Below are positions 17,531-43,126 of a DNA stretch of 64,000 nucleotides, in pieces. A model generated the notes under the pieces. It saw only the letters and a list, made by a program, of their open reading frames with translations. It searched no databases and was not told where the DNA came from. A program made the translations under genes and the position numbers. Each line of letters opens with the position of its first letter. The first letter of the stretch is position 1. This DNA is from a virus. Where the stretch lies: positions 96,862 to 160,861 of IMG/VR virus record IMGVR_UViG_3300025687_000001, one strand, 5' to 3'.

Positions 17531-20500
17531 ATGACAAGCCTAGTAAGGCAGATTGACGCTGCCCTACAGCTTCTTGGTTGGAGTCCCCTTACGGACTTTG
17601 GAGAGATTAGTCTCTGCAGTTTACGTGAAGAGTGGGTGGCCGATATGACGGCTAATCTCTCCTGGCCGAGGGACGCCCAGATTAGTAGATGGTGCAGCAG
17701 CGCTACCCGTGGCGTAGGGAAAGAGGCGGGTACCACAATCTACGTCCTAGCCAACCTAAAAGACCCGCACATGGTGTTCCTGGCCTCCCTCACACACCTA
17801 GGCCCAAGCAAGTTCAGCAGCGAACACGCAGTGCTTCACGCAAACTACCCAAACTGGGAATGGCTGCTCAACCACACTGCAGCCCAGTAGAAAACCCCGA
17901 CGTGTCGTGCCTGCTACAACTAATCCATTGGGATACTTAAGTAAGTTAGCGGGTGTCATGGACCTCGCGGGCTTTACCTACGTTGATCGGTGGCTAACGC
18001 CTCAACTGATCGGGGGGTTGCCCACCGACATGGCCCACAACCCTAGCAGGGTAGACTATGTACTCGGAGAGTCCGTGCATGTAGTGGCGTGTGTCGTAGA
18101 AGTAGGGTTCCAGGTCAAGCAGGCCAAGCTGGCCATCTACGTCTACAGCCCTGAAAAGCCTGAAGTACCCGGCTACCACGCTGTGCTCGACAACGCTGTT
18201 GCCGCTTTCGGCGTTGTTGCTGCTTTCATTGAGGACATGAGATGAGCCTGATTGACCTTAGCAACTGGGACCCCGCCTTCATCAAGGCTAGCGCTGCTGC
18301 GCTGCTTACGCTGCCCGTTGACCCAGCAGAGGTGCAGGTCCAGCTGCGTGCTAGTGAGTTGAATACGTATTCCTCGGAAGGGGTGATGACATGGCCCTAC
18401 TCAAAGGATGTCCTCTCTAGCTATGGCGACACTCCGTGGGTCAGTGCAATCTGGTTAGACCTGGCCAACCTGCCAGGTCTTCACTTTCGGTCAGCCAGTT
18501 ACGACCTCTGGTACATCAATACTCGCTGGATCGTGGGGTGCAACGTCCACCCAGACCATCCAGGGCTGCCGGAGATATCCTGGTGCAAAGAAGTCAGCAC
18601 TCCCTACGAAGTCTACGAGGGCGGCGTGAGAGCACTCAATGAGCTCTGGTCCTGTGGATAGCCCGCCCTTGCACGGACGGCTGTTCGACCGTACATGGGC
18701 GCCACGGCCTGGTGCTGTACGTGTTTGTGCGGCTGAGCAGTGGTAGCGCCTACGTGGTCAGCAACGTGTCGTGGGCGCAAATGTTCAAGCGCCCTTCAAG
18801 ACAGGGAAATATGCTTCACGTAGGACGCCCTAGCTGGGAGCTGAAGCGCGAGCGTACGCGCGTAAGCCTTGAGCACCCCGCAGAAGTGCAGCAACACATC
18901 CTCAAGGAACTCGACCGGCCTCACAGGCATGCAAAACGAATTAGCGCTCAACGCTAAGCTGCTCCTGAGAGCAGCAGAGCTGTTAGGGTGGGAAGCGCCG
19001 GTGCAGGTAGCCACAAGCTCCCTGGACAAGCACATCGGGGCAGGGATCTACTACACTATTGGGCGGTTCTCAGGGCGAGGCATCACCATAAGCGTAGCTA
19101 CGAGCACCGACAACGTCTGGAAACCCCTGCTAACTTACGGACCCTGCGAGCGGCGCGAGCCTACGCACTGGGAAGACCGACAATACAAGCATCCCAAGTA
19201 CGTCTTCATGCCTTCGTATAGGCGAGAACAATGTAACAGCATACAAACACTGTTCGCAGCGACAGACTTTCTCGCAGAGCAAGCAGCGTGGTTCAGGGAC
19301 TGTTCCCGCAAGGGAAGGCTGTATGTACGAAAGGAGTACTCCTCGTGAGTGACCTGAGGACACTGCTTACCTCGCTTGCGCTGCTTGGGTTCCAAGCAAA
19401 CCGCGCGGGCGGCATGATCAGTGGTAGGTTCGAATTCAGCGAGGCCAATACATTGGTGCTAGTCTACGTGCCCGACGACCGAGGCCGCCTGTACTTGTCG
19501 CTGACCATAACGCCTTCCGCCCTAGACTGGGTGGCCTCGACAACTACCCAATTTCCGGTGACCTGGGTGACCCCCCAAGACTTCCCTGCAGTGGCAGCAT
19601 GGCTTCTCAGCGGATTGCCTCGAGATGAGTAAAGCAACGCTCAACGCTACCAATGACCAAGACTGAAGCGCGAGTAGCGCTAGAGGCGCATGGGTACGTG
19701 GCCCGCTACCCCTCCGCTGCTTTCCCTAATCACGCTAACGGGGTACTGGTAGCTAAGCGCGGAGCGCCTACTGTGCTATCGCTGTCCTATAACCCGGACG
19801 TACTGGACCTGGTACTCGAGGTAGGTTCTGCAGATGTGTGGAAACAATCGGGTGGGCTCTTTGTTCAGTGGCATCTTCCGGGTCTTCGACCAATAGGTAC
19901 CCCCTACCACTACCACCACGACGGTTACCTGCCGTCTGAGTACTTCCTGGAGTTCTTGCTGCTGATGAAGAAAGCCTTTCATGACATCACCGGCAGCTGA
20001 GCTCCTTTTTAGCCCGCAAGACCAGGCGGCGTTTGTGGCACAAGCGAGTATGAACCTGACTACCGCGGCACAGGTCTTTGATCTTTGCGGCTACGATGTC
20101 GAAGCCGTCTACCCAACTAGGCCGTCGCTGTTAGCCACCACCCGCGGCGCCTTCTCCACCGGCGGCGCCTTCTCTGGGCAAACTGCGGACACAATAGAGT
20201 GTGAGCTTAGCATCGACTCGTGTGGTTTCCTATTGACAGTCCTCTACGGGAAGGCTTGGTATCCCACTCTTAGAGATCCCTTGCGCACTTGGGTAGACAG
20301 CGAACCCCACATGCAAGAGCTAGAAGTACACACAGCGCAAGAGCTGCTTGCGCTGTGTGCGTGGCTGAAGACAGCGCTGTGAGCCACAACAGATACCCTA
20401 CAAATGAAGAGGCCTGGGAGATGCTAAAGCTCATGGGCTTCCACCAGTCTTACATCCCTAGCCATGTACGCGAATCTCTCTCTGCTGTGTACTGCTATCC

Positions 20501-23500
20501 AAAAGTACACATGCGACACGCGGTCCTTGAGATACGGTGGTTCGAAGGCGCAGGGAACCTTTTCGCCCATTTGAGCGGTGGCTGGGTCAGCAACACACTT
20601 ACGTCACCGTGGGAGATAATGTTTGTTCGGTGGGACCCGTGGGAGCCAGGCCTTCCACACACTCTCGCTGGAGTAGCGCTAACGCTGCCCAAGCTGCAAG
20701 CTCGGCTCGCCGAGCTCATGCAGCAATTCAAGGAAGCCAATGCTTCGCTGTACGCCTGACCGAGCTTGTCTTGTCTTTGAGCTGCTAGGGTTCGCCAACC
20801 TGGCGTACTACACCCGGGACCCCCAGCGCCGAGCCGCCACGGGATTTCACAGCGCGGGAGGCCACCTCTACGCTCTCGTAGTGGCCTGGGACGCGGAGGT
20901 GGAAGAGTTTTTCTCCGAAGCAGGCCTCGGCATGATCCTCGACACTTCGGATCCCCCCACGCAGCCTCCGACAGTGGTTTGGTCCGCGATGTATCCTCCG
21001 GAGCCCTTGCTCCCAGCAATAGAAGTGAAGACAGTGCAAGAGCTGCTCAACGCTACTTGCGCTGCTTTCGCTGCTTTCCATGAAAAATACGGAGATGACT
21101 AGAACAGAGTTTGAGATGCTGGCCACGATGTGTGGTTACAGAGTGATTACGAGAGACAAAAACGTGTCTAAGTCGTCTGTCGTGGCCTTCGCTACTTGCT
21201 ATGACACAGGACGAACTAAGCGCGGTGACACGCCCGCAGTGCTAGTCAAGTGGCTAGCGCCTCCGCCTACATACTTAGGGGTCACCGCAGGCTACGCCCG
21301 CCTAATTCCCCTCATCCACGAGGGTAGACTGACACACTGGACTCACTGGACGAGGCAGGTATACTCCTCTGGGATCCCCCCGCTGCCTGATGCCAAAGAG
21401 CTAGCAGCGCTGTTTGCGTGGTTGGCGGAAGGAGTCCTAAGTGTTGAGACCTAGTGTCCTCCGGGAGGTGCTTGCGCTAGCTGGGTACCACCCTGCTTCC
21501 ATCCGACACTGGTTTGTGCTGACTTCTCGAGGCACGTCTGTCCCCCACCTGGCAGAGTCTGACTGTTTTGTCTTGAGTGTAGATATCACCATGCAGGGAT
21601 CACTGCGCTTCGAGGCAGGCACTGCTATAGTTGCTTTCTCTGCTGAAGACGACCCAGGCTGCTGCGCAAAACTCTTTCGCTACGGCCGCGCTTCTCTGGT
21701 GGAAAGCCTAGACACACCAGACACACCCGAAGAGCTCCTCGAGCTCCTGGTAAACAAGGCGGAAGCCTTTTACAGGGAGTACAGTGCCAAGCATTGAGCT
21801 GAGTGACAGTAGGAAAGAGTGGCTGCTACAGCTTGCCGGGTTTGAGATGGTGTACTTAGCTCCACGGCAATACATTGGTAGTCTTAGGCTGCCCGCAACC
21901 GGACAACTCTTGCTGGCACAACCACTGACAACAGAGCTACGCATGTGGCACGGCGTGGGAGGTACTCACCAGACGTCTTACGGTCGCAGGTCCTACAGCT
22001 GGCAAAGCATACCAGTCTTTATCCACTGGCAATATCAAGGCCCAACAGAGTGGGCAGTGTACGCACAGCTGGTAGAGGCAGCCAACGAGTTTATGGAGAC
22101 TGGTGTCATCGAGATGTGTTGTGACCAGGACTGAGATGCGAGCGCCGCTAGCGCTGCTTGGCTTTCGCGTTTTGAGCAAGGAAGGCCCCTTGGAGTGGGA
22201 GGTAGCGGCGAAACAGCTGCCTGGTAGGCCAAAGCTTATCTACGTAGATATGGCAAAGGCCGGACCTCCGCATAAGCTCAATGTGTACATAGGTGACGGG
22301 GTAATCCTCGGAGTAGAGACAGACGCATACCTGAGGGGAATTAGGTGGGGCTCCCCTCCTAAGATAAACCGCAGCGACTGAAGTGTCAGCACTCCGATAC
22401 AGTTGGCCATTGTGTTAGCCAACCAAGTAAGGCTTGCTCATGACTAGGACTGAGATTGGTATTGTCTACCTTGCCTTAGGCATAGAGACTACCACACCCA
22501 AGCCCACACACTACTATCCCTGGTTCCTCGGGGTTAGAGAAGTGGGTCCCTGCGTTTTGTGGGTAGAGACCAGCAACTCTGACGCAAGTGGCGTGAGAAG
22601 CCACATCAATGCTTACTGGGGCCCAGGAGTGTTAGAAGGCTCCGTGGGTCGCAGACGACCTGACCGCGGATGGGACGTTGTACACCGCAGACACTTCAAC
22701 TGTGACACCCCGCAAGAACTCTACGATCTCCTGGTACAAGTAATAGGTGAGATCGCAAAGCATGACTCGAACTGAGCAATGTAGCCACTACCAGCTGCTC
22801 CTGGAAATCACAGACCGCTTCGTTAGATATGCCTCTCGTGACTAAGCAAGAGCTAGCAATGACATTGTCGCTGACAGGGTTTACCCGGACACACCCTGCT
22901 GACGCTGTTTGGGTTGGCGGCGCTAAAGGTGTAGGAGACAACCTGCTGTGGGTTACCATCACTGATGTCATAGGCGAGTGGTACACCCGAGCTGAGTGGG
23001 GGACTGGCTCCTTAGCCAATCGCTCGACTTTGACTCACTACTCCCATAGGGACGGCTACACGGGCACGGAATACTACCCTAGGTGGGCGTACCGCCGAGA
23101 CGGGGGCTTCTTCCCAAGGCGCAAGCAGGTCAAAGCAACGTCAGCAACGCCAGCAGCGTTCCTCGCTGAGCTCGCTGAACTCACTGCTCGCGCTGCTGCC
23201 TACGACCCCACAAAGACAGCATGACACGCGCAGAAGCAGAGCTGGCGCTGACTTGCGCTGGCTACACGCTGATGTTGTGGCCTGGGGTGTTCTTAAGGAA
23301 AATCGAGGGATCCTTACATAGCGTGGGAAGGCGAACGCAGGTACCCGCTTTACCGGCTAAAGAAAAGACACGACGTGACCAGCTTACGCGGCTTCGCTGA
23401 TTTCCTTGTTGCGCTGAGAGAGCAGTACTTGCAGGAGGTTGGGTGCTGAGCCCAGCTCAAGCAGCGCTAGCAATGCAAGGGGCGGGGTTGATGCTGACTA

Positions 23501-24227
23501 GCGAACGAGCTGCCCCGATCCTCCGCGTCGGGAGTCTGCTTCGAATACCATGGGCCCCCGCGGACACTCGGGAATACGCCCCCGGCCTCGGGGCCACCTA
23601 CACCGAGAATAGTCACGGTGAGGGCAGGCTGTACGTGCGCACTGGACCAGCGCGATGGACGCCTCGAGTTTCCGTGGGAGGTCAGCCCTACGCCACAATT
23701 AGCTGGAAGCTAGATGGCGCGTTGATGCAACAAATACCCTGGGACTCCAACGACCCTGTTGAGCTGACGCGCTTCTTGCGCTGGTTCGTTGATTGGTTTG
23801 TCGAGACACAGGCTAAAGAAAAGTGATCAGCGCAAGCAGCGTTAGCCTGATTTTAGAGGTACTAGGGTTCAGGCTAGCTTACCCGTACCAGCCAAAGTTA
23901 GTTGTCGGTGGGGGGTTGCAAGTGCCCTTTACCGGTAAGCTAGCCACTAGTCTAGTCGTGGAGCACTACCGCTTAGCCAACGTCTTGTACCTTTACTGCG
24001 GTAACGCCTTGGTTTGGGATCCTGAACCAGGCATCACTGTCGTGGAGGTCAAGGACGACATAGACCAACTGGGCCTGTACACCAACGCACCTGAGGATCC
24101 CACAGAGCTCTATAACTTCTTGTTATGGATCGTCGACTGGTTCGTTTCAACCAGACATGCCGCGACGAGCAGCCTCAGCGAAGGCAGAGAAGGCAGCGTC
24201 AGCCCGGTGTCGGCCCAGACCACTTAA
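17531..24227 (+). CDS. Left arm of an array of ~17 diverged paralog-like small proteins (95-140 aa)
   Basis: Recurrent N-terminal helix ending L-x-G-[WFY] (LQLLGW, AELLGW, ALLGF, EAHGY, DLCGY, KLMGF, ELLGF, TMCGY, ALAGY, QLAGF, SLTGF, EVLGF) and C-terminal T/D-P-x-E-L helix (TAQELL, TVQELL, TPEELL, TPQELY, DPVELT, DPTELY). Confidence 0.65.
22121..22447 (+). pseudogene. Array member interrupted by in-frame TGA (22379-22381)
   Basis: Reading through gives SVSTPIQLAIVLANQVRLAHD, the family C-terminal motif, ending overlapped with the next start. Confidence 0.55.
23221..23449 (+). pseudogene. Truncated/frameshifted array member
   Basis: MTRAEAELALTCAGY start; C-terminal-like VTSLRGFADFLVAL lies in another frame. 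Confidence 0.45.
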
Positions 24228-24330: not shown

Positions 24331-25140
24331 CTAGCGCTCAGCTCCCCCCGGTAGGGCGTTTCTTTTAGCTCCGACATGGTCTAAGTCTAGGGCTGCGGTG
24401 GGGGGAAAGGCAAGCTTACGCTGCTGCTCTGCTTGCTTGAGAAAAGCGAGGGGGTCGGGGTGCTGCTGGAGCTGCCTAAGCAGCTTAGCGTCTAAAGAAT
24501 CATCAACAGCGAAGGCAGCGTCGAAGGCGTGTCCATACGAGACGTCATCGTCGTATAGCAGCTCCTGCAGCTTATCGTAGGTGAACTGCTCCCAATTTGG
24601 GTGCTGCTTGCGCCAGAGCACGCGGAGCTTGGTGATTGGATCGCCGTCTCGGTCGTCTAGGACATCAAAGTACGAGTCGTCCCAGCAGGCGCGGAATTCT
24701 CTGTCGGTTGAGCTAGTAAAGGCCAGCAGCGCCTGCCAGGCAGCAAGGCCAGCTTCTTTTAGGTCGGGGAGCGAGGAGGGCGTTGCTTGCGCTGCTGCTC
24801 TGAGGGCTTCTAAGGCGTCGAGCAGCTGACCATAGGCAGGGGTAGGGACTTGGTCTCTTCGTGGGCCTACGCTGACGAGGGCCGCATCTACGCGCTTTAA
24901 CACCTCCAAGCCTATGGAGACGTTTATGCTTTGCAACCTGCCCACCTTACGACCTGCTTTGCTGCTTCGTTGTTTGACCGCGCCCTGGAGCCAAGTAGCG
25001 AGGATCGCATGGGCGCGTTGAGGATTTACGTAGGGCATATACCGATGATTCGTGTCTGGGGTTTCGAGGGTAGAAAAAGCATATCGCAGAGGAAGTGAGT
25101 AAGAAACAGCGCAAGCAGCGCCAGCAACACTTTCATCCAC
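24331..25140 (-). CDS. Hypothetical helical protein next to the origin-like region
   Basis: 269-aa ORF against the local gene direction; start uncertain. Confidence 0.6.
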   Translation of the reverse strand: MDESVAGAACAVSYSLPLRYAFSTLETPDTNHRYMPYVNPQRAHAILATWLQGAVKQRSSKAGRKVGRLQSINVSIGLEVLKRVDAALVSVGPRRDQVPTPAYGQLLDALEALRAAAQATPSSLPDLKEAGLAAWQALLAFTSSTDREFRACWDDSYFDVLDDRDGDPITKLRVLWRKQHPNWEQFTYDKLQELLYDDDVSYGHAFDAAFAVDDSLDAKLLRQLQQHPDPLAFLKQAEQQRKLAFPPTAALDLDHVGAKRNALPGGAER

Positions 25141-26260
25141 ATCAATGATATCCTCTATTACTTCTAACAGAGAACCCCTGTTTTCAATGATTACGCGGAC
25201 TTAGCCAGTAAGCTTCGAAATTTTCGAACGCGCTCTAAGTACTGGAATCTATTGGGAAATCAGACACAAGTCTCACGTTATAACTAACAATCCTTTTTTC
25301 CCTTTAATTTCAAGGGTTTCGACTTTTGGTTTTCGATTGTCAATAAGTTTCAAGTACTTAGGCGTTGCCCTGCGCGAGCAGCCGCCTCGAAAAGTGGCCC
25401 TAATGCGCTGATTTCATTGAGAAATTCGCTGCATCTATATCTTTATGGGAGAGGTTTTGCGCACCATAACCTAATACCCAAAACCCTGGCTACTAGAGTA
25501 GCCGACAAAAGAGCGGCATAGAATTGTAAAATTCCATAAGCAAATCTTATGGTAACCCAACACTGCAAGCTCAAGCAGCGCTAATAGGCTTTCTCGACCC
25601 TCAGGAGAAAATTTTGACTTTTGAGATTACTAACACAAATAACAAATAAGCTTTAATGAGTAATAAAAGCTTCTACTTCTTATGCATTGAGACATAAATG
25701 TCCCAGCAGATTTCGTTTGTAAGCTCTTTACCCAGTACTCTCTCATAAAGATATAGATATAGGTAAAAAGGTAATAGTTTTAGTTAGTTAGGGTCACTTT
25801 TGCAGGCGGCTGCTCGCGCAGGGCAGTCTCTAACTACCCGGAATCTATGCGCATTTGCTTTTCGAAAGTCGAACTCGTTGAAATCATTAAGAATTTCCCG
25901 ATTTTCAGCTATGCAAAAAGTATAAGGTGTAACTTTACCGTATGACTAGATTTTGAAATCTCTACTATTCCTCACAAGCTTCTATTCCCGCGGACGTTTT
26001 TGCTCTAATACTTCTACGCCGACATGTAGGTATAGAAACTACTTCTACTGAGACCTTAGCACCTCACTTTTTGCAGCACACGCACCTACATGTACTGCGC
26101 TGTCGTATCAGCGTTCACATCAAAAACAGTGCTCTCGCCCTCCGCACTTTCTAAATCCCCCAAATCCTCCACCAACCCCCTCCCTCGCTCAAATTCCGCC
26201 CCCGACCCAAATCGCGCTACTCTTTCCGCACAACAACAACCGGCTTCCTGGTAAAAGAAC
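25141..26260. other. AT-rich non-coding region with a long imperfect inverted repeat; putative replication origin or packaging/terminal site
   Basis: 25366-25403 pairs with 25788-25825 (35/38) and 25433-25453 with 25738-25758 (20/21) about the same centre (25595.5); weaker symmetry extends to about 25300/25890. Confidence 0.7.
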
Positions 26261-26263
26261 ACG

Positions 26264-28746
26264 ATGAGCAACCCCCCAACTCCACCCTGGGTCCGAACTA
26301 CCGCGCGACTCGTTCGCACGAAGGAATTCAAGACCCTCCTGGAGTCGTTGATGCCCCCACACAAGGCACGCATCCTCGCTGAGGCATTGACGAACTACTA
26401 CTCTGTAGACAGAAACCCAGAAGCCCGAGAGAACTACTGGGATGAGTTCACTGATCCGGGCCTAGAGCTGTGCTTTGACAAACACGGCCCCCGCTTCGAA
26501 GGCAGCGCAGGCAGCGCAAGCAGCGCAAGCAGCGCAAACAAGGCCCTCCAAGCAATCGTGGCCACCGTAGCCCCCTCTCACCCCTCTACCCGCCCCCCAC
26601 ACTCCGCTCAAACCCCCGCGCCCACGCCCACCCAACTCTCTGCTAGCCCTAATGAGCGCAAGTAAGACGTACGCGCGTACAACCGAGCAAGTTTCTGCCA
26701 CCCCCAGCACCTCCGCCACCCCCGACCCCATCGACTGGCTCACCACCGACGCAGGGTTGGCGTGGCTTCGCTGGCTCACCCTGCCTGTAGTCGTACGCCC
26801 GTGGTTCCCTACGGGAGTAGTGGCAGTTGCCGCAAACCCTATAACCACCACCTCCGCCAGCGCTTTGCGAGACTTCGCCGCCAAGCTCCACGACACCAGC
26901 CGCTTGTTGTTGGCAGTCTTGCCCTCCTCCGCAGATAACCTATTGGCGGGCGCTTACTTGGACACAAGCACAGCCCGATTATTCACTCGAACAATGCGTA
27001 ACGTAACTCTCGCCAATACCGCCTCTCTCTGCGACCTCCAGGACCCCCTCGAGCTCCACAAATGGCTGACAGAGCAAGCAGCGCTAGTGCACCAACAGCA
27101 CTAGCACCACACCTAAGCGACGAAGAAGAGCTAGCCTGCCTGGTGCGTACCCTGGCACCCACTACTCTCCTGGCTGGCTACGAGCTCGTGCACCAAGACC
27201 TTACAGACAAGAGGTACTGGCGCTTCGTGTTGGATGACGTAGCTGGCGAGTTCAGCCAGACTTCCACCGACCTCGACGTCTGGCAGCTCCCCTGCACCTC
27301 CGCCACACACCCCACCCCCGCCTGCATAATGGCAATCAATCCTTACGCTGACTGCATGCGAGTCGTTTGGATTGAGGGAGACCCGTCACGTGAGCTTATG
27401 GGACCAAGCATCAAGCTAGCTACATTCGACTTCCCGGAACCTCTCTTCCCGGTCACCCCCACCACCCAGCTTGAGTTTTACACGTGGCTAGTAGAGTGCA
27501 AGAAGAAGTACCTGGCGCCATCCAGAACACAGTCGCCCAGTTAGCTGGGTTTGTGTACTCTTACGAAGAGGCCACGTTACCTGCTTACTGGGAGACCTTC
27601 CTTGATCACTACCCAGACCGCGCTTTCTCCACAGCGGACTGCGCGTTTTATGTCTGGGAATACACCATAAAGCGATAGTGTCGCTCAACCCCTACCCACC
27701 CCCAGGCCGCAGTCCCTACTTGGTTAGCCCCTCCGTTCCACACGGGACTTTTCCTCTTCAGGTCTCTCAGGATTCTCCAAACCCATTGGACACCCAGCAC
27801 TACCTGGATTTCTATGTAGGGCTGACCCGTCTGCGCCTGGCAGTGTTCCCAGCGCCGCCAGGAGCACCATGACCCCAGAAGAAATCGCAGCAGCACTAAC
27901 AGCGCTAGCACCGACAGCAGCGCTAGCAGGGTACGTCTCTACAAAACCTACCAGCGTCTCTGCTGGCCTCGGTGCCAACGCCCACTATGACCCGCGGTTC
28001 TGGCAGCGCACGTTGGACAATTACCAGGGGTTTAATGAACAGGTAGCTGTGTGGGATATCTGGGTATACGAAGCAACTGGCAATGACACCGGAAGCAACG
28101 ACTTACGGGCAGTCATCATTGCTGTAAACCCATATGCCCGCGCCCTACAGTGGGTGTGTGCTTTCCCAGCTACGCCAACCCTAATAGAAGCAAGGTTCCG
28201 ACTCCCTACTAACACCAGCACCAACACACCCTACCCACCCTTTTTCCACTGGGAACTATACACGTGGCTATGTACCTGTCGAAAGAAAAGCCTTACGGCG
28301 ACCTTCCAAACCCAGTAAGATACAAACTCCTGGTCGACTTCGTAAACATGGCAGAGAAGGTCCTGCTACTCACTGCCTTGCCAGTGCGGCTGGGCGACTC
28401 TCCAGAGTATTACAGGCATATCTTGTTGCCTACGTACGAGACATGGAAGCGGGATGTGTTCAACCGCTGTGCGCGCAACCCCGTCCCTAGCCCCAGCGGG
28501 CATCCCTGTGCTGATTACTACAACCACCTGGCTTTGGTGTACACAGAGCCGGAAGGCGAGCGCGCCTCGAACACTCAGACAGAATCCTGGGTCTTCTGTC
28601 TGAGTGTGGTTGACTTGACTCTGTGCACCTTCAGCAGCAGCATATCGGGCCCAGCATACATCCGTCCCATGCCAGACCCACGCACCCCCAATGCTCCGAC
28701 AGAGCTACTGGAATACATCCTAATGTGTCATAAGGCACTAACATGA
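26264..28746 (+). CDS. Hypothetical genes incl. a closely related triplet (27062-27544, frameshifted 27484-27872, 27869-28318)
   Basis: Shared LAPT..LAGY, W...LD, VW, A(I/V)NPY and YTWL..C.KK motifs. Confidence 0.6.
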
Positions 28747-30511: not shown

Positions 30512-33500
30512 GTACCAAACCGGGCCTATGGGCAGGCGGCATTCACGCAGCGCAAGTCAAGTTTGACGCCTGCTGCGAGGTGCTGTGGATGTTGGGGTGG
30601 CAAGACATTCACGGTCCTCAGATTATTCTTCACACAGGGTACGATCGAATGAAGCGCGTGTTTCGGCTCTCTACAAACCCCGCGATTTTGCTCCCCCACC
30701 GAGCTCGAGTGTTTTTTTGGGCACGGCGCCGCAGACTACAGCCGAGGGGCCTATGTCCGCGTGGAGGTGGTAGTGACCACACCGCCAGAACCGGGCCAAC
30801 ACCCCTACCTGCTCTACGACGGTGACGGGTGTCCCCGACCTCCTAGCTTTGTTGTCGTACAATGGGACAACCTACAAGCCCTAGGAGAAGCACTCTATGA
30901 ATACACTGCTGCAGCGATTAGCGGACGCATTTGAGCTGATGGGGTGGGAGGAGACTCCTCCTCCGTCTCGTAGGTACAACCAAGACGCGCCTCTCGACAA
31001 TCCAGGGAGGTTTAAGTTTCCGGAGTCCCTGACAACCAAGAAGACCCCCAACACGCCGGTAGCGGTGCGAAGGTTTTCGCCGCCGCCAGAGTCCCCTGCC
31101 TACCCGCTAACAGCGCTAGCAACGCAAGTAGCGTCAGGCAAGATTCGCGTGTCCGTCCGAGCACTAAGGCTCTCCCCCGAAGTCTGGGAAGACTTTGTGT
31201 TTGACGAGCTGGACGACATGTCTCCGAAGCTGCACGAGGCTGTGCAGAAATTGGCTGCCCTGCTCCCCCCTAAAGAAGCCGCCACCGAGAACCACATCGT
31301 CTCTATGACGCTTGGTGGCGGCTGTACCGTGTCTAGCTTCACGGGATCGGGGTCCGTGACCGCACTTGCAACCCATATGACCTCGGAGGACTCCTACACG
31401 GTAACGATGAACGTCGAGTGCCCGAGGTGTGGATTGCAACATGTAGCTAGCCCCAAATAAGCTCCACTAGCTCTAGACGCACGTATGCACGAGCCTGTTA
31501 CAGGCTCACTGTGGCCTTCTGACAAACCACGAGGGCTCTGACCATAAGAAACTCACCTCCGGCCCTGGCCGGCGGTTGCGTAGTTTCACCACTTACCGAC
31601 GGCAGCAGAAGCCGGAGGGAAGTCGTAGAGCTAGACACAGACACATTAGCCGGTGTCGACAGGCACCACGAGCTTGTAACGAGCTCACTGCGGGGGTACG
31701 GAGGTTGGTTTACATCATATCCCGACCACAACCTAGTCATTTCGCAAAAGTGACTCGCTCCGCCCCGCTCCTCTCGTCACTCTGTCCGCTGCGCGGCCAG
31801 AGCGACCGATTATACCCATGCCGGGTCTAATAGGTCTGTTTTGCGAAATAGATCGTAATGTGTCTCAAAACGCCTAAGTTTTTAGGCCGTCAGCAACAGC
31901 AGCACTGCTACCACCAACACGACGGCCACAACCTGGTATAAGTCAATGCGAGTTATGTACAGAGATCCTTCCAAAGCACTCAGCCACGCAGGCCTGGGAC
32001 GAGGCTGGCGCATTGTGGGGAACACCCCGCTTCAAATGCGCAAGTACGTCACCGACCACGCATACGTGGAAATGAGCGCACACGACAAAGTCAGTGTCTT
32101 CGAGTTGAGGACATCTCCCCCCACGTCTTCCAACGCAAGGCGGTTTACGACCAAACACGTCTGGGCGGAGACTCACAGGACCCTAAGCAATTTCTCCGAA
32201 CAGGAGCTAGCCGAGTTCCTGCCCCGTCTGGAGGCTAGAGCAAGAGACCTTGCCAGATCACCGACCGCCGCCCCACCAGATCCCGAAGCGCCTCGTTCTT
32301 AGATTTACGGAGCTAACGAAGACGCTGACTGAGCTATCAGGGTGGAATTTCCCCCCGGCGCTGTCCTGGCCCAACGTGTCAATGAGCTACACCACGCTCT
32401 ACGACTCGCCCCTGCGATACGGTCAGCTCTTCCATCGACAGCCTGATGGCGACTTAACTGGAGGAGCGGATCTCTGGTACGTCCCAGAGGACGCCACCAC
32501 TCGGCTGGCAGTTTTTCGTTGCGACCTCACCCCTGGCGGGCAGCGCAGGTATTTCACAAAGCACCTCCGCCCAGCGCTAACAAACAGACTCTGTTACGTG
32601 CAAACCTGGCCTTTTCTAACGGAGGGCATGCTCGACCCGGACACCCCACCTACGCCCAGCATCGAGTACCTGGCGGAGTGCCACGCACATCTGGTAGAAG
32701 CGCGCCACGTAGCGTTGGAGTTGCTAGAGGGGTTGTGCAACCAGAAGAGCTAGTCGAGCATTTTCGACAAGCAATCCTTTTGGCGCCTAGCGCAGGCTGG
32801 CACTGTCCGCAGGCTCTGAGCGCCGCAAAGATCCGGTATGATGGGCCTACTTCGAGGCGGATTACGGGAGAGCGGCTGGCGGTGAAGCTGTTGTACCGAG
32901 CTGGTAGCCCAACAGGACGACTGTACCGTGCTGGTCTGCACCCGGCCTCCGCGCCAACCAAGATCCCCGGAGAAGCGTGCATCGCACTGCTAGTAGTAAA
33001 GCGCCCCCAGATGCGCAGGCTGACTATTTATAGCGCTCAGGAGTCCTACGGGATGCACCTGACCCTGAACAAGGCCCGTCGTCGAGAGCTCCGCGACCCA
33101 CCCGACTCAGCGCTAGCAGCGTATGAAATCCTACTGAGGCTAGACATGCTCGCTGAAGGCGCGTGGGCCCGGTACACTCCTTACACGGACCAGTTGGTGT
33201 GGCGCGGCTAGACACAGAGCGCAAGCAGCTCGCTCCGCTCAACAAAACAACGCAGGACTTGTTCAAGCAGGCATTGGTGTCTGGGTACTTGCCGAGCTGG
33301 TGTGCCTGGGACCACTTACCTTCGCGGCTTTCTTACCTTCGCGTATCCCCCCAGAAGTCTGGCGCTTTTATCGCTGCCCGCCTAGGGTGGGTTCCGACGC
33401 CGCCTTCCCGATTCCTCGGCAGTGGCATACTAAAGGTGGAGACCTTGCGTCCCCTGGTGGTTGTGGCTAGCCGAGCTAAGTCTAGGCGGCTGACGCTGTA

Positions 33501-36500
33501 CACCTTGAGTTTTGACCCCCTCACGCTCATACCCACCGCACTAAAGCAGCGAGCAGCGTATCAGCGTCTGGCAACGCGCCCAACAACAGCGTACGCAGCG
33601 CACGCAACGCTAGTAGAGTTGGAGAGTATAGTTCAGGAGATGTGGCCCGGCCTCGAGCCTTACCAAGCGGCTGATGACAGCTATGACATCTGACGACAAG
33701 CTCAGCGCAGAACCTAAACCCCGAAAGCGCGTAGAAACCGGGCCGCCAGCAGCGAACACCTATCTGCTCATGCAGCGGGTGATAGTTACCGCGGCATTCC
33801 CGCATTGGCGAGTTCCTGGCAGCGGATGGAGCTACGCGCTAGCGGGTACTCCCGTGGCTAAGCGCATGCGGCCCAACTCCCCTTCTCTTACAACACCTGA
33901 CACTCTACCGTGGGTGCCCGGCTTAATCGTGTGCCACCGGAGTAAACAGCGGACGCTTACAACGTACGCTCTACACTTTGTGACCCCCGGGGAGTGGGGG
34001 GCTGTGCCACAGTCTACGCTACGAATCCTAGCTCCTACTACGCCAGCGGAAGCGCTAGCAGCGCTAGCAGCGCTAGAGGAGTTTGCCCAAAAGCTATGGA
34101 CTTGAAGTCCGCAGAGGAAACCGCCCTGCGAGTGCAGCTAGTAGCCGAGCTACAAGGCTTGCAGTGTTACGATCTGCGCGAGGCGAACCTCAGACTTCTC
34201 ACCCACAACGAAGGCGTGTTGTACCTGGTGCTGCTAGCTAAACGCACCCGGGAACCTATGACTCGCTTACAATTAGAGTTGTACAGCGCAATGCCAATAG
34301 CAGAGCTAGCGTTGCGCGGGGACGGCAAGATTTGCCTGCTAGCAGGGCACGGCGCGCACCCCGACACGATAGCTACCTGTAGAACGCCAACAACGCCAGC
34401 AGCGCTAGCAGCGCTAATAGCGCAGTGGCGTGTACGCGCGTGGGAGTACATATGACGCCCATAGAGACCACCGAGCGCTTAGTCCGGCAACTACTAGACC
34501 TGGGCCCCATGGCAGGGTGGTCAGTGGTCACGTGGTTGCAAGACAAGTTGCACGCCAAGGAGCTGTTCCCCGGGGGGCTATACAGTGACCGCCAGGGAGT
34601 GTTGTACGCCTACGAAAACAACTGTCTCTGATTTGTGGGCTTTCGTCACGGAGAGTCGGAAGTTTGCTTGTACGTGCCAGAGATCACAGGCGGAGTCTTT
34701 CTACGCGAGACAGCAATTTTGCCCTCGCACAGAAACGTAGCCTACCCGCTAGGAAGTCTGGAGCTGGGGACTTTGCTGCTCAACTGGCGGCTGTCCCTAG
34801 CGGACGTTATGTTCCAGGCACGCAAACGGGAGCTAGAGTTAGCTGCGCCCAACTTCCAAATAGAAATAGGCGAAAGCAAGTTGAACTCTCCCCTTCACGA
34901 GACTAAGGTCTAGTCACAACCTAGAAGGACCCTGAGATGCCCCGTCGTAAGACTTCTACCCCCTCTCCTACGTCCAGCAGCGCTACCACCTCCAAGCCGA
35001 AGTCGGCGGAGCCTGTCATGGAGCAGCTTGAGCTAGAGCTAGCGCTGTCGGAGCCGGCGGTCCCCACTCAGCTCGAGCAGCTCGAGGCGGACATCATGCC
35101 CGTGATAGCTGCAGGTCCCGAGTACAAGAACTTCGTGGTCTTCGGTACCAAGTCCGGAGACCGCGCGGAGTCGTACTACTACTACCGCGCGCAAGACCAG
35201 CGAGAGCTGGAGAGCGTACTTCTTTCCACGCCGCTGTCCGATGGCGGCTTCGTCAACTTCACCTACAACGAGGTGGACGTTTTCCCGGAGGATGTTTTCG
35301 TTAAGTGTCCGCACTGCAACGAGACTCACCTGAACGAGTCGATGGTAACAACGATCTCCCCCCAGAGCTAAAGCCCTCGGCGCTCTACAAGCACGTAGAG
35401 ATTGCCAGCCTGGGCTTTCAGCTGATGGGGTGGGAGCTTAGGTACCCTCATCCCATACCTTCGCTACGAGACAGCGTTAGGTACCCAGAGCATCAGCTGG
35501 CTCGGGTCCCTACACGACGGCCAAAAGCCTGGCACCCCAACCGGATGGACAGAGTAGTGCTGAGGTTGTCGGGATCGGTGTATATTCCCGCCTGCATCGT
35601 GATACCAGGCTACTACGGGCGCACTTCTTGGATCCAAGAGTTCGGGCCGCAGTTGCCCAACCCGACACCAGAAGCCTCCGTACCAACTCCAGCAGAATTG
35701 GTGTTGAGCGTTGTCAGACGACTGGACAACCTCGGTACTTGAGGCGGCGAAGCGGCGGTGGCGTCAAAGGATGCTGAGACGTAAGCAGCCCCCGCCTTCG
35801 CCGCCTTCAGAGCAGCCCCCGCCGCCCACCGATTTCACTGTAGGCGCTACGCTATCGCCCAAATACCCGAAGGTGCATAGCTCCTCCAACCCCGCAGTGC
35901 GCGTTTCCCCCGAGGACATTTACAAAGCCCTGTGTTTACTGGGCTGGAGCTGTCAGCTACTAGAGTCAAAGCTTACCAATGTCGGGACGCCAGGTCAGAA
36001 GGTAGTCACTGGGCTGATCGGGGAAGGCAACCGGAACAACACGTGGGCGTGGGTCTCCATGCGGCTGTGGGACCAGGACACAAACCTGTACCTGTGTGAG
36101 TACACGCCGGACAACTATGGCAGGGACCCTGCGGCCTCCGACTACAAGTCCGGACCAACTCAAATCCTCTTCGCGGACATGGACGCGGTGCTGAACTGGG
36201 TAGCTGCGCGCAGGCACTATCACTTAGCGTGCCTGTACGGGGATAGGGGTGAACATCCATAGTCTAGTGCAGGTTGCGCAGGCCTTAGGGTGGGGAGTTA
36301 TCTACCCGGCAGTCTATGGGACCCTGCCGGCTAACAAGTTGGCTCACGTATCTCGTGTAACGCTAGTGCTGCCCCTGGTAGTACCAGACGACGTTGATGA
36401 ACCGTACCTAGTTCTCGCTGCTTCGGGGCGCCTGGAAGCCTCACTGTACAAGAGGATTAGCTCCACCGACAGAGAGACTATACGACTTGTGCCTCGTACA

Positions 36501-37409
36501 ACCGCTGAGTTCGGGGAGTGGTTGCTGGCACACACGCGGGGCGCAATGCAATGAGCCCACAGTTTGCTCAGTTCACAGAACTGTACCATACTCGACAGCG
36601 TCTGATTAGGGCGTTGACCACCGCGTTCCCTGTCATTGCGGTGAGCCCGCAAACAACGCAGGTAGACTTAACTATCTACAGCTGGACCATCCCGTTTGTG
36701 CGTATCAAAGGATTGCCTGAGGAGTTTTTGTACTGCAACATAGACGCGGTAAGCTTGCGGGTTACCTACACTAGTAATAGCCTACCTCGTAGCGCCCGGT
36801 ACCCCCAGGGCGTGCTGGAGCGTCGAGCATTCACGACCCTCCGGGACAAGTCCCCAATCAAGATGATAGACTGGGTCCTCCAGCAAAGGAACGCGTTGCA
36901 TGAGCACCTGGAAGCTGCACGACGGGATTAGGCACGTTCTTCATGTGCCTACTGGTCTCAGTGTAGGGCGCAACCTAACAACGCAAGCAGCGCTAGCACT
37001 ACTTGCATACCTACAAGAGCACCTACCTGACCCAGACCTAAACGACCCCGAATTGCGAGCACAGCTAGAAGCTGCCGTGTGCCACGCCAGGTCCTATCTA
37101 CCGGTAAAAGACCTGGAACACGTCGTAGTTCGGGTGTCGTATGAGTTTTCCGTTTACGCGGACAGTACGACGCAGGCTATACGGGCCACCAAGGCGTCTC
37201 TTTCTGCGCATCCGCAACTGGGCCCGGCTCGAGTACAGGCATATCAGGTATCCCACCCAACGCGCACTAAAGCGCTGGTGCCTATAAAGCTGCCTCCCAC
37301 CCCCACACAGGTAATCTCACCGGAGAAACTTCAGATTGTCACTCTGGACGAGGTGGCGTTTGTTCCGCGAGTTGCGGCGAACTCACCGACACCTTCTAGT
37401 AAGAACTAA
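30508..37409 (+). CDS. Right arm of the diverged paralog-like array plus hypothetical genes
   Basis: WMLGW, ELMGW, ELSGW, PSAGW, PMAGW, QLMGW, CLLGW, QALGW starts; TTPAEAL, TTPAAL, PTPAELV, TTAEFGEW ends; subfamily RRLT(I/L)Y at 32735, 33163, 33674. Confidence 0.6.
34452..34913 (+). pseudogene. Array member split by in-frame TGA (34629-34631)
   Basis: ORFs 34425-34631 and 34635-34913 are in the same frame: ENNCL*FVGFRHG. Confidence 0.5.
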
Positions 37410-37514
37410 CTCCCTGCTAGTAACTCCTGACCTGGTTACGCTCTCCCGTGAGCGTAGACTTTTGGTCCTGGCTCTACTAGAGCACACAAATTCGCCAAAA
37501 TTTGGCAAAAGGTT

Positions 37515-38159: not shown

Positions 38160-38162
38160 ACA

Positions 38163-38654
38163 TTGCGTCGAAGAGTGCCGCGCTCTGCGCAGGTAGGAGC
38201 TGTCCTGACGGTAGGCCGGCTCGTGGAGCACCTGACTCACCACAGAGGACTTGGGTTTTGGGACTATGCCAAGGCTTGGGCCATTTTCAACGGCCTGGTC
38301 ATTGTGGACCCTGAAGACTCCGGGATGACAGGCATGGTCATCAACGCCCGCAGCGAAGGCAATCCCTGGTTGGTCTACCGCAGCAGCACGGACAAAGACT
38401 CGGCCGAGATTTTTCAGGTGCCGTACCAGCGAGTAGTGGAGTGGGTGCTCAGCAAGTCCTCAAAGCACAACTACTGGCAGTTGATGGGGATGGCTGGCGC
38501 TCATAAGCAAGAAGACTGCTATGCGTTGATTCCCATGATGGAGTGCGACACGTCAAGTCGGTACCGTCACTACGCGCTCAACTCGCTCGTTGATCCCTAC
38601 TCAACCAATACGCTAACGGCCGAGAAGCTCTTTCGGCACATCGCCGAGAACTGA
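38163..38654 (+). CDS. Hypothetical protein
   Basis: 163-aa ORF in operon orientation. Confidence 0.55.
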   Translation: MRRRVPRSAQVGAVLTVGRLVEHLTHHRGLGFWDYAKAWAIFNGLVIVDPEDSGMTGMVINARSEGNPWLVYRSSTDKDSAEIFQVPYQRVVEWVLSKSSKHNYWQLMGMAGAHKQEDCYALIPMMECDTSSRYRHYALNSLVDPYSTNTLTAEKLFRHIAEN

Positions 38655-39028
38655 GCCTCTTACAGCTCCGGTTCGACCGTACGGTCGAGGCAGCGCAACG
38701 CTGCTGCTGGTCAGTAAGTGTACCCAGAAAGAAATATTGAGAGGGTACAGCCTCGCAATTTTCCCTCTGTGTTCAGGGAAAACTGCAAGGTCGCGGAGCT
38801 AAGTTTCTTATCGGGCTGATCCCCCGATGTCTTGGTTTGCTTTTTACAGCAACGAGCTCGCAACGAGCTCATCGCAGTGCTGGGGCGCTGCGCGCCCTTG
38901 ATCTAAGCTGATCATAACCACTTTGCTGCGTTGAAACCGTAATGATTTCAAGGAGTTACACGGGCTGCCTATCGGCATTAGGTGCCAAAGGGGATCGTAA
39001 TTAGCCGCAGCAAATCGCAAGACAAAAA

Positions 39029-40009
39029 ATGCTCTACATAGACTTGCCCAACGGGCAAAGAACCCATTGGCCTCCAGTCAGGGACAAAAACGCTAATTAC
39101 GGTTGGTCGCAAACGCGCGCGCTTGAGGAAAGCTTTGCCTTCTTCCAGCGCCGCAAACACCTACACCGGACGGGTCCGGGGGAGATTACCGGCACCAACC
39201 GGCACCACCTGGTCCACGAACTGAGCTCGAAAACCACCAGCTACGTGTTCCGTCGCAAGACAGGCGGGGTGTACAAGAACAACAGGGGGCGTGCGGTGTG
39301 TTACCTGGCCTTCCGAGTGGACCTGAGTGGTTTCGCGACCCGCGCACAGGACGAAGAAACTATCTACCTCCGGTTGGACCGGGGCTGTATTTTCTCGCGG
39401 CTCTCCAGGGCTATGGAGTCGACCGTTCGGTCGACCGCCAGCCATAGAGCAAGAGAGCGCAAGCTGGCGGAGGCGGTGACTCAGCTTGAGGAGCGAACTG
39501 GGTGTGCTCTGTGGGCTACCCACAGAGCTGATTCGGAGAAAAAAACAGTCTGGTCCTGCAAAGACACCGCCTCTCGCTTGGAGGTGACTTCGGTGTACGA
39601 AAGGGACCTCGCCACTGACTACCCGGCGATACATAGGTTGCCAGAAGAGCTAGCTCAACAGCTACAGCGTTGCGCCCAGTTAAACGCTCGCGGCTGGCGG
39701 ATTCAACGACAGTTGAACGCAGCGCGCTACCTGTGGGTAAACCACATGGTGTATCCGCAGCTCCCAAGTTTGCGGGGCCTGGAGTACCAAGAGGTACCGA
39801 CGTACGCGGTGATCACCTATCCAGGAAAACAAGTCCAGGTACTCCTTGCTGACATGTTCCGCCACAGCGCCAGCACAGTTGAGTTTGAATGGTTGTCGCA
39901 ACCCACCAGCACACAAAGAGGCGTGGGCGGCGGGGATCCGGTTCTTGGTCCCGCGTGGTTTTTTGAGTATGATGCGGACTCCATGCAGTTACGCAGAGTA
40001 AATGAGTAA
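39029..40009 (+). CDS. Hypothetical protein
   Basis: 326-aa ORF; no motif recognised. Confidence 0.65.
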   Translation: MLYIDLPNGQRTHWPPVRDKNANYGWSQTRALEESFAFFQRRKHLHRTGPGEITGTNRHHLVHELSSKTTSYVFRRKTGGVYKNNRGRAVCYLAFRVDLSGFATRAQDEETIYLRLDRGCIFSRLSRAMESTVRSTASHRARERKLAEAVTQLEERTGCALWATHRADSEKKTVWSCKDTASRLEVTSVYERDLATDYPAIHRLPEELAQQLQRCAQLNARGWRIQRQLNAARYLWVNHMVYPQLPSLRGLEYQEVPTYAVITYPGKQVQVLLADMFRHSASTVEFEWLSQPTSTQRGVGGGDPVLGPAWFFEYDADSMQLRRVNE

Positions 40010-40526: not shown

Positions 40527-40729
40527 CCGGATGCAAAATCCTAGTTGTGATGTCTGTGCTGCCCTCGACAGAACCCATGTCCCCGTAGTCTTTGGGTACA
40601 AAGAGGGCTACGAGTACCCTCTGAAAACCATAGAGTTTAGGGACGCGCGTGTCTGCAGCACTGGATGCGCCGTTTCTTTAGCCTCGGATTTCCTACATCC
40701 GTCGTACACCTGGAGGGTAGAGATACACA

Positions 40730-41413: not shown

Positions 41414-41792
41414 TATGCGTTCTTCCTCGACAACCTACTTGGACTGCAACACGGTCCGTCTGACTGAGCTCAGCACTTCGGTCCAGCCGGAGCCCAAGAC
41501 CAGCGACAACTCCCGCAACGTAGCGTTTCAAGCTATGCAAGAGCTGAGGCAGTTGCACACGGCTGATTCGGTGGTCTCCATGCTAGACCAGCGCCGCGAG
41601 TTTGGGCGTCGGAAGTACGGGACTCCTCTGCTCAGCCACAATGGGCGCGACGCTAACTGCGATGCAGCGCAAGAGATGCTAGACGCGCTGGTCTACGTAA
41701 CCCAGGCTAAGATGGAAGGCCGGGACACTCGAGAGTTACTTCCCTTGGCCCAGACCCTGCTCAGGGTGGTCATCAGTGGGTGCGAAGAGTAA
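41406..41792 (+). CDS. MazG-like all-alpha NTP pyrophosphatase
   Basis: RREFGRRKYGTPL..NGRD...DAAQEMLDALVY. Confidence 0.65.
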   Translation: MNSMRSSSTTYLDCNTVRLTELSTSVQPEPKTSDNSRNVAFQAMQELRQLHTADSVVSMLDQRREFGRRKYGTPLLSHNGRDANCDAAQEMLDALVYVTQAKMEGRDTRELLPLAQTLLRVVISGCEE

Positions 41793-43123
41793 CCCAACCG
41801 ACTACAAGCTTCCCCTCAACCTGGTAACAGCGCAAGCAGCGCTAGCAGCGTGTGGCTGGGAACCACACCTCTATCCTCGAGAGCCAATAGGCCAAGAGGA
41901 GCTAGTCTACTTTAGGATAAAGCAGCGGAATCCTTTCGCGGAGTTGCGGCTAAAGCTAAGCCTGGGCGATGACTGGTGCCGCATGTACTTCAGCGCTGTA
42001 TCGGACTTCCGAGGCCAGCCACCTAACTCGTACCAGCAGTACGCCTCCACAGAGAGGGTGGCTCACAGTATGGCGGAGTTTGTAGCGCACGCCACGCGCG
42101 TACCGCACGAGTACCTCTATGAGGGAAAGTATGTCAAAAACGTCCGTTGACCACCAAACCGCCCTGCTTGCACTGTCCTTGCACGGCTGGGAGACAGTAG
42201 AGCTCTCCAACGGAGGTAAATACCAACACCGTTTCGTGGGGGGCCAATACTACACGGTTAGCGTGGTCTCCCCGACCGCGCATCCAGGTCTCATGGAAGT
42301 CTTTGTTAGCAGCGCGACTAGGCTGTCTTCGAGGGCCGTTGACCTCGTAGCTCATGCTACGGTCTACAGTATCCCCGAGCTTCTAGGAACCACCGCCAAA
42401 AACCTAGAGGAGCACCGCCAAAAACCTAGAGGAGCACCTACATGAATGAGAACACAACCAGTGCTAGACGCGTAGGACTGACTCCTCTTTTAGCTCGCTT
42501 AGCCTGGTACTACGCGAAAAAGGGAGAGGGTCAGTACTACATCGACCACAAGGAATACGACAACGTCGTGGTGTCTCAGCGCTACGATTGGACCGTCGTA
42601 GACGGCGTGGGCCAGGGCTGCCTAGAAGTTTCGTTTCGCCTCGGTAGGGAGAAAATTCGTAGTATTGAGCTAGGTGTACACATTGTTGGGGCGAGAGGGG
42701 AGCCTCTAGTCCGGGAAACGTAGCGCAATGGGTGTTGTGGCTTTTACAGTGCCGATCCTCTCTAGGATTTCCCACAACACTGCGCTGATGGACCTCTTCC
42801 TGGACATGGACCGGGACTTTCAGCTAGACCAGTTGCTCATAGCCGACCGCTACAAAAACGGCGTACTCAAGCTAGTACAGCTCCACAAGGAGCGGTTTGG
42901 GACGCAGGATGGCTGCACGCGTGACAGCCAGAATAAACTGCACTACTGGTGGTTTACGGACAGCGGATGCGTTGTTTACGTCAACAACCACCACGGCATC
43001 GACTTCCAGGTGCCTGCCTCCATGACCGCAGAAGAAGCCTTCGACGCCTGGCAGCGCTACCGGAGTCAGGTAGTTTGCTTGATTGGTGACGAGGATGGCG
43101 GGGACCCTGACTGGGTCAGCTGA
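41776..43123 (+). CDS. Two further array-type paralogs (41776-42150, 42131-42445) and two hypotheticals (42442-42723, 42728-43123)
   Basis: AACGW...SMAEF and SLHGW...SIPELL motifs. Confidence 0.55.
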
Positions 43124-43126
43124 ACG

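Follow-up and report, generated by a model that had tools for sequence, protein, structure and literature searches.

In the compact genomes of phages, paralogues seldom form large families. Among eukaryotic viruses, the MGF110, MGF360 and MGF505 families of African swine fever virus, the host-range families of poxviruses and the poxvirus "gene accordion" are same-strand tandem arrays with roles against host defences, many homologues and recent changes in copy number. In bacteria and DNA viruses, SUKH immunity genes form tandem arrays or lineage-specific expansions, in which several to about 20 strongly diverged paralogues of a small, non-catalytic alpha+beta domain are read as a repertoire of binders (Zhang, Iyer and Aravind 2011, PMC3113570). 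Here we describe an array of small, strongly diverged genes in a 64,000-nucleotide stretch of phage DNA (hereafter, the window), which is the final part of the virus record IMGVR_UViG_3300025687_000001 (positions 96,862 to 160,861). Positions are those of the window, and genes are named by their first position.

The array resembles the SUKH expansions in that diverged paralogues of a small domain without a catalytic signature lie side by side. Unlike them, it is larger (about 27 copies), has no SUKH or immunity match, no recognised adjacent toxin gene and no homologue outside the phage. Like the African swine fever virus and poxvirus families, it is tandem, encoded on the same strand and located in a variable region, with copies gained or lost between relatives, whereas its copies have no DNA similarity left and the five members looked up are identical in all assemblies of the phage. 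Judged from its sequences, the array appears to be a real, private multigene family, orphan in searches of billions of proteins with three of its members. We consider it probable that the genes form one real paralogous family with a common fold; the whole explanation, in which a lineage-specific tandem family supplies binders, stands about evenly between right and wrong.

Ordered motifs at both ends of the array proteins

A preliminary description of the window had proposed about 30 paralogue-like genes, each with an N-terminal helix ending in L-x-G-[W/F/Y], aromatic-rich beta segments and a C-terminal helix marked by [T/D]-P-x-E-L. Both motifs are enriched as described. Within their first 45 residues, 17 of the 46 small + strand genes at 17531-42445 carry L.G[WFY]. 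Of the 81 small proteins encoded elsewhere in the genome, 3 do so (Fisher p 1.6e-6), and per-protein shuffling yields a mean of 1.27 and a maximum of 7 (1000 shuffles). Similarly, [TD]P.EL occurs within the last 45 residues in 6 of 46 genes in this range and in 0 of 81 outside it (p 0.0018; shuffle mean 0.11). A looser version of the N-terminal motif, h-x-h-h-G-[WFY] (hydrophobic-x-hydrophobic-hydrophobic-Gly-aromatic), matches 24 of 64 genes, where 2.0 would be expected.

To limit circularity, each protein was also scored with a position matrix built without that protein. By this leave-one-out measure, 19 of the genes in the range score at p<0.01 on the N-terminal motif, the C-terminal motif or both, and elsewhere 3 of about 150 do so, which is the chance level. 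Full-length hidden Markov models (HMMs) built from 17 members place the held-out 18th at ranks 0-5 of about 200 proteins in 16 of 18 cases, and the proteins that outrank held-out members are almost always other array genes (35305, 30897, 34096, 33674 and 27484). The codons under the N-terminal motif vary synonymously (CTA/CTT/CTG/TTA/TTG; GGG/GGC/GGT), which indicates that the motif is conserved at the protein level and not as DNA; a DNA element as its source was therefore rejected.

Between the two ends, alignments reveal a common central hairpin, consisting of a hydrophobic strand, an Asp/Asn-x-x-Gly turn and the sequence x-L-Y-L-x-L. In the family alignments (A2, A3 and A5), Gly is the sole invariant column. 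The aromatic richness noted earlier is present and modest, at 9.8% in members versus 7.8% (p 3e-4), with tryptophan at 2.7% versus 1.7%. Seven left-arm copies begin with M-T-(R/K)-x-E, usually overlapping the preceding stop codon, and the pI of members spans 4.5 to 9.9. We count 27 members as intact, besides three decayed copies and four to five borderline genes, so that the earlier figure of about 30 holds only when decayed and borderline copies are included.

Tandem duplication, gain and loss of copies

BLASTP and jackhmmer detect just four small clusters, each made of adjacent genes: 23443/23823 (BLASTP 4e-6); 20050/20740 (BLASTP 0.023, also joined by jackhmmer); 32882/33199/33674 (jackhmmer 2e-35 and 8e-28 from 32882 to its neighbours; BLASTP 0.015 for 32882 and 0.004 for 33199 to 33674); and 27143/27869 (30% identity across 140 residues). 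Neighbours are closer to each other than to distant members, as the preliminary description had stated. Three broken copies accompany them, one frameshifted (27484-27872), one truncated (23221-23400) and one reduced to a remnant (22762-22845). These adjacent pairs and triples, the neighbour effect and the decayed copies bear out the tandem duplication proposed earlier and demonstrate, at the level of sequence, growth by tandem duplication and loss of copies by frameshift, truncation and deletion.

A 712-residue neighbour protein has relatives, including one at 63% identity on the metagenome contig L001 (MPMD02308289.1). On this contig, the homologues of 34937 and 36900 abut, and the window has 35305, 35771, 36249 and 36518 between them; likewise, the homologues of 40730 and 42442 abut or overlap, and 41415, 41776 and 42131 lie between them in the window. 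The absence of two blocks between abutting conserved genes suggests that the family genes occupy insertion/deletion hot spots. Each block difference would represent a gain in one phage or a loss in the other.

The same contig encodes, at 14704-15497 on the minus strand, overlapping tandem open reading frames of 118 and 157 aa that match each other at BLASTP 1e-4. What the two have in common is limited to a helix at the N-terminus and one at the C-terminus (T-[RK]-AALVA-[RQ]-L-[ML]-EW); their ends are kept and their middle is free, as in the window family, at a different genome position. The family HMM of the window does not detect this pair, which for that reason is only a lead. Two further reading frames on the reverse complement of the contig (7364-7957 and 8994-9572) carry, by eye, a putative signature of HD-type metal-dependent hydrolases (..H..HPLRV..LHD..ED..) as in (p)ppGpp hydrolases; no counterpart turned up in the window.

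The same phage has been assembled repeatedly, with lengths of 160,861, 160,331 and 160,191 bp plus fragments. The proteins of 21441, 20050, 20740, 22440 and 42131, together with those of three neighbours, are identical on 4 to 10 contigs (22440 and 42131 on 10), and the variants listed for these eight proteins differ in the called start codon alone. At the DNA level, blastn (word size 9, E 0.1) finds no match between the array and the remainder of the genome, and the DNA in common within the array is limited to short Ala/Leu-codon words. A diversity-generating reverse transcriptase acting on the array was considered and rejected, given that there is no template/variable repeat and that the proteins are identical across assemblies. 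The lack of DNA similarity and the identical proteins give no sign of ongoing hypermutation, of a template/variable system or of recent duplication.

These results divide the earlier proposal of a gene accordion with hypervariable surfaces. Gain and loss of copies are seen in the decayed genes and in the blocks absent from L001, but recent change in copy number is unsupported because no DNA similarity remains between copies. Hypervariable surfaces are likewise unsupported: the four pairs that can be detected have similar levels of identity at their ends and in their middle, and the five members are identical across assemblies. It is insertions and deletions that make the middle hard to align; focused substitution is not demonstrable there.

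Predicted fold and structural neighbours

Two members of about 30, 21441 and 19345, were modelled with AlphaFold, with the paralogues themselves used as the alignment. The model of 21441 has a predicted local distance difference test score (pLDDT) of 58, with end helices that score 73-83 and a poorly defined middle. That of 19345 (pLDDT 68.4; predicted template modelling score, pTM, 0.51) comprises a helix at residues 3-13, a five-stranded sheet (strands 17-21, 24-32, 35-41, 52-55 and 66-69) and a helix at 77-90. A common helix/beta-sheet/helix plan is supported by these models. Unrelated folds, which would have refuted the alpha-beta(n)-alpha scaffold proposed for the whole set, did not appear in these two models, a check that covers part of the family.

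The nearest structural neighbours of both models are RWD/UEV/E2-like modules (the Med17 C-terminal domain 4h62_Q, the Tsg101 UEV domain 2f0r_A, the Knl1 RWD domain 8q5h_K, Atg10 3vx7_B, FANCL and CBASS Cap2 7to3_A) and small immunity or chaperone proteins (TriTu 7zhm_D, the YbjN-like protein DR_1245 4h5b_B and the type III secretion chaperone AvrPphF ORF1 1s28_A), all with scores within the range that unrelated models reach in the search's own calibration. Frataxin is among the neighbours of the 19345 model alone. Foldseek returned no match at E 0.001 or better for the models against the PDB and predicted viral structures. With neighbour scores at background and no Foldseek match, no known fold family can be claimed. 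E2 enzymes are marked by a catalytic Cys with HPN, and RWD domains by a YPxxxP loop; alignments A2, A3 and A5 contain no conserved Cys, His or Pro-rich loop column that would correspond to RWD, UEV or UBC motifs.

In the Atlas, 23823 has a model of low confidence (pLDDT 0.38), whose nearest neighbours include a TfoX_N cluster at a template modelling score of 0.42; 20050 has no model there, and its look-up gave feature matches of at most 0.84, which is the chance level. TfoX_N (PF04993) was rejected as a candidate, with no match in the 38 array proteins or in the six-frame genome at E 10.

The HicA toxin (PF07927) has a comparable beginning: a short N-terminal helix ending in Gly-aromatic, followed by three short strands, in a protein close in size to the shortest members. 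The start M-(T/K)-x-x-E with its helix and Gly-aromatic resembles the HicA N-terminus, the helix and first three strands are similarly spaced in the 19345 model, and hhalign lines up the N-terminal helices. That the family consists of degenerate HicA-like (dsRBD-like) RNA-binding or toxin proteins is nevertheless scarcely credible. HicA is marked by a conserved catalytic His after its first strand, and the phage proteins have no conserved His after the glycine, no HicB-like partner and two extra strands in the model. HicA_toxin gave no match in the 38 proteins (E 0.1) or in the six-frame genome even at E 10, a search in which control genomes were found, and hhalign against E. coli HicA reached a probability of 0.4%. 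No HicA or dsRBD chain occurs among the best 50 structure-search matches, which leaves room for one further down.

Searches for relatives

Searches of Pfam, PHROGs, NCBIfam and PADLOC with 38 array proteins produced no credible match; the isolated weak ones were two in Pfam, to unrelated families (E 0.037 and 0.093), and one in PADLOC (E 5e-4). When 21441 and 19653 were compared with 5.8 billion proteins in a word-indexed search, each query found only itself or its own cluster. An exhaustive HMMER search of 1.84 billion cluster representatives with a profile of 20050 and 20740 returned the two queries alone, and the family profile had only chance matches among PDB sequences (E 0.36 or worse). 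Viral and genome contig collections were scanned with single proteins and with alignments, and yielded no relative of the neighbouring genes; a metagenome scan alone gave a usable one, L001. Similarly, a search of the literature on comparable phage arrays, including the term "gene accordion" in bacteriophage, uncovered no comparable case.

Several observations weigh against a single family of binders. BLASTP, jackhmmer and hhalign do not demonstrate homology across the sub-clusters, and the profile comparison suggested in the preliminary description, run with hhalign between two- and three-sequence sub-cluster profiles, gave no match and left them unjoined. Further members stand out only weakly from shuffled decoys when scored with the full-length HMM (candidates at 5-10 bits), which, run on the whole genome, recovers its training set alone. 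In addition, the motif-based member list was chosen partly by eye; the structure predictions number two, of which that of 21441 is poor in the sheet; the defence and anti-defence libraries give the array proteins no match beyond the weak PADLOC one; and the five members looked up do not vary between assemblies of the phage, so that there is no sign of a current arms race. Because the profile-profile comparison is null and the HMM separation weak, the homology of the whole set rests on ordered motifs and not on full-length statistics.

The unjoined sub-clusters and the low HMM scores would also fit a set of unrelated small orphan genes that had independently acquired a Gly-aromatic helix, and sometimes a TPxEL helix, as a docking or sorting signal for a common partner or through local composition. 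The composition of the right arm is indeed unusual (GC skew -0.25; Pro/Thr/Ser/Ala-rich proteins), and Ala/Leu-rich helices recur as the DNA word AGCAGCGC. We consider independent origins unlikely.

Potential function of the array proteins

For the paralogous family that we favour, one small cytoplasmic protein (81-187 residues) would have been duplicated in tandem. Each copy would keep the N-terminal helix with its Gly-aromatic end, a central beta-hairpin and a helix at the C-terminus that starts with (T/D)-P-x-E-L. The two helices flank a sheet of four or five strands in the model, and strand sequences, loops, charge and length differ freely among copies. As only the glycine is conserved, we infer that the proteins are not enzymes. 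The nearest solved shapes of the model are all small protein-binding adaptors, which makes the binding of a different partner by each copy the likeliest role. TriTu, DR_1245 and AvrPphF ORF1 are close to the members in size, can be aligned with both models over nearly their whole length and each act by binding one protein partner. The partners of the phage proteins would probably be host proteins or components of host defence, engaged during the take-over of the cell, these being the likeliest partners for products of the non-structural region of a lytic phage. New specificities would come from duplication and fast divergence.

A role of the copies as binders or counter-defence proteins draws on analogy with viral multigene families and SUKH arrays and on the character of the weak structural neighbours; we propose it tentatively, in line with the preliminary description, as the strongest of the candidate roles and a possibility that falls somewhat short of an even chance. 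The most specific form of the proposal, a private, germline-encoded repertoire of about 30 binders on one scaffold, each tuned to a different defence or take-over target, is rather doubtful.

The SUKH analogy also admits a second function. By the same logic as in SUKH-type immunity gene arrays, the genes could form a poly-immunity array, each copy neutralising a different toxin of competing bacteria or phages or of the phage's own large multi-enzyme protein. We regard this function as distinctly unlikely. No SUKH (SMI1-KNR4) profile match was found among the 38 proteins. A scan of the larger neighbours revealed no toxin domain.

Alternatively, the proteins might serve the phage's own programme, either as transcription or replication adaptors of the T4 MotA/AsiA type or as assembly chaperones, with many copies for many promoters or clients. 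The genes do lie on either side of a primase-like gene and of an AT-rich region that resembles an origin or is rich in promoters, and the MotA C-terminal domain and secretion chaperones are among the weak fold matches. Core functions, however, should be conserved, yet L001, whose core proteins are 55-75% identical, is without seven of these genes, and three members searched have no homologue anywhere. This alternative therefore appears quite improbable.

Should the copies prove to be binders that differ in their targets, they would offer a ready collection of inhibitors of bacterial proteins or defence systems; a scaffold of 95-130 residues would probably be easy to express and could represent a new scaffold class for inhibitor discovery. 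The array would also be a phage counterpart of the duplicate-and-diverge host-range families of large eukaryotic viruses. It also shows how quickly small proteins of phages can diverge to a point at which sequence searches no longer connect them, although the fold is retained, and it bears on how much viral "dark matter" consists of hidden families.

Members, borderline genes and decayed copies

All copies are encoded on the + strand. The p values below refer to the N-terminal (N) and C-terminal (C) motifs in leave-one-out position matrices, and HMM ranks are those of held-out proteins among about 200. The left arm opens with 17531-17890 (119 aa; N p 0.0009; HMM rank 2) and 18929-19348 (139 aa; N p 0.0027). 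The modelled gene 19345-19632 (95 aa; N p 0.0009, C p 0.0005) is the shortest complete form, and 19653-20000 (115 aa; N p 0.0064; HMM rank 0, E 2.6e-4) starts with MTKTE. The paralogues 20050-20382 (110 aa; N and C p<0.0005) and 20740-21102 (120 aa; N p<0.0005) are separated by 20361-20759 (132 aa; N p 0.0073). In 21080-21454 (124 aa; C p 0.0005, N p 0.07), the true start is likely at 21095, which gives MTRTE; the next genes are 21441-21797, the first to be modelled (118 aa; N p 0.0009, C p 0.0005), and 21784-22134 (116 aa; N p 0.015; HMM rank 1, E 0.0034).

The short member 22121-22381 (81-86 aa; HMM E 0.02) has the N motif ..PLALLGF and no clear C-terminal helix motif; the GTG at 22121 gives it an MTRTE start. 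The same start is found in 22440-22775 (111 aa; C p 0.0005), where Gly-Ile replaces Gly-aromatic, and it is all that the translation keeps in the 27-residue remnant at 22762-22845. Downstream, 22829-23224 (131 aa; C p 0.0023, N p 0.015) has a likely start at 22838 (MTKQE). The truncated copy at 23221-23400 occupies an apparent 218-nt gap; its translation of 59 aa has an MTRAE start and a ..LTCAGY motif and is without the C-terminal helix. The left arm closes with the pair 23443-23826 (127 aa) and 23823-24227 (134 aa; C p 0.0005; HMM rank 0), the latter being its final gene.

On the right, the three-copy tandem consists of 27143-27544 (133 aa), the split copy and 27869-28318 (149 aa; N motif ..AALAGY). 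The middle copy, 27484-27872, is divided between two frames (27484-27678 and 27678-27872) with the frame change near 27670, and its first half aligns to residues 10-48 and its second half to residues 63-120 of 27143. Further along, 30897-31460 (187 aa; N p<0.0005) has a long C-terminal extension and is a recurrent top non-training match of the held-out HMMs. The next sub-cluster comprises 32882-33211 (109 aa), 33199-33693 (164 aa, with an N-terminal extension; N p 0.047, C p 0.011) and 33674-34105 (143 aa; C p 0.0005), which is the top non-training match of one held-out HMM at 14 bits; beside it, Gly-Leu replaces Gly-aromatic in 34096-34455 (119 aa; N p 0.0073, C p 0.0005).

The first block absent from L001 holds 35305-35742 (145 aa; N p<0.0005), the best non-training match of nearly every held-out HMM, 35771-36262 (163 aa; N p 0.026) and 36249-36554 (101 aa; N p 0.039, C p 0.010; HMM rank 2), and the first two of these have N-terminal extensions. 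From the second block come 41776-42150 (124 aa; N p<0.0005) and 42131-42445 (104 aa; N p<0.0005; HMM rank 0).

Among the borderline genes, 26652-27104 (150 aa; C p 0.02) and 28270-28746 (158 aa; C p 0.010) have the C-terminal motif only (..DPLELHKWL.. and ..APTELLEYIL.., respectively). Two others fall outside the range first described: 13505-13762 to its left (85 aa; N motif ..AILKGQGW.., p 0.019), which came from the pattern scan, and 47348-47728 to its right (126 aa; N motif ..ELDLCGF at residue 13, p 0.029).

Genomic setting and neighbouring genes

The source record is a 160,861-bp virus genome with terminal repeats, rated complete by CheckV, with a GC content of 58.5% and about 208 genes in our own codon-usage gene call. 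When the window was compared with 50,697 deposited phage genomes in a near-identity search, there was no near match, and PHROG matches are absent even for the large structural proteins, which together point to an uncultured phage of strong divergence. Almost all genes between about 5.2 and 47.7 kb of the window are small, lie on the + strand and abut or overlap their neighbours, in a run broken by one minus-strand gene (24331-25038) and a 1.3-kb AT-rich non-coding stretch.

The array flanks this AT-rich, origin-like region on both sides, as the preliminary description had it, with one arm at 17.5-24.2 kb and the other to the right, and further-off members at 35-36 kb and 41.8-42.4 kb. Family genes lie head to tail in polycistronic + strand units, within runs at 17.5-24.2, 27.1-28.3, 32.9-34.5, 35.3-36.6 and 41.8-42.4 kb, and make up about 13% of the phage's genes and 6% of its DNA. 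About 19 genes within 17531-42445 are non-members, several of them conserved in a relative.

One non-member in the right arm, 29606-30511, encodes a 301-residue pentapeptide-repeat protein (Pfam PF00805, E 4.5e-10). Pentapeptide-repeat proteins are known as DNA mimics, and a role in host interference is plausible for this one. The gene just before it, 28743-29618 (291 residues), has a weak, sub-threshold match to an archaeo-eukaryotic primase-like domain (E 2.6e-4). The long + strand block opens at 5169-5642 with a gene that matches pyrimidine-dimer DNA glycosylase weakly and below threshold (Pfam PF03013, E 0.0015).

Just to the right of the AT-rich region, GC skew takes strongly negative values (-0.25 at 26-28 kb and -0.14 at 28-30 kb), and Pro, Thr, Ser and Ala are abundant in the proteins encoded at 26000-30000. 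The word AGCAGCGC, which often forms runs with a 9-nt period, is over-represented on the + strand at 23-43 kb, with 20 forward and 3 reverse copies, and its reverse complement is commoner at 13-23 kb, so that the orientation switches across the AT-rich region; much of this signal derives from Ala/Leu codons in the family helices. A near-palindromic 20-mer, ACGAGCTYGYAACGAGCTCA, occurs at 31489, 31668 and 38852, and all three copies fall between genes of the right arm, in its two widest gaps (31460-32015 and 38654-39029).

To the right of the array, a 37-nt motif (..GCAAATC.. then ..CATAAGTATA) is present in four copies, at 43124, 44167, 45279 and 46921, each upstream of a gene; it looks like a phage-specific promoter. 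Finally, among the structural genes, the small minus-strand genes 53311-53685, 58025-58384, 59172-59597 and 59634-59951 begin with a shared leader, about 20-25 residues long (BLASTP down to 6e-10), after which their sequences diverge, and two more genes of this kind lie upstream of the window.

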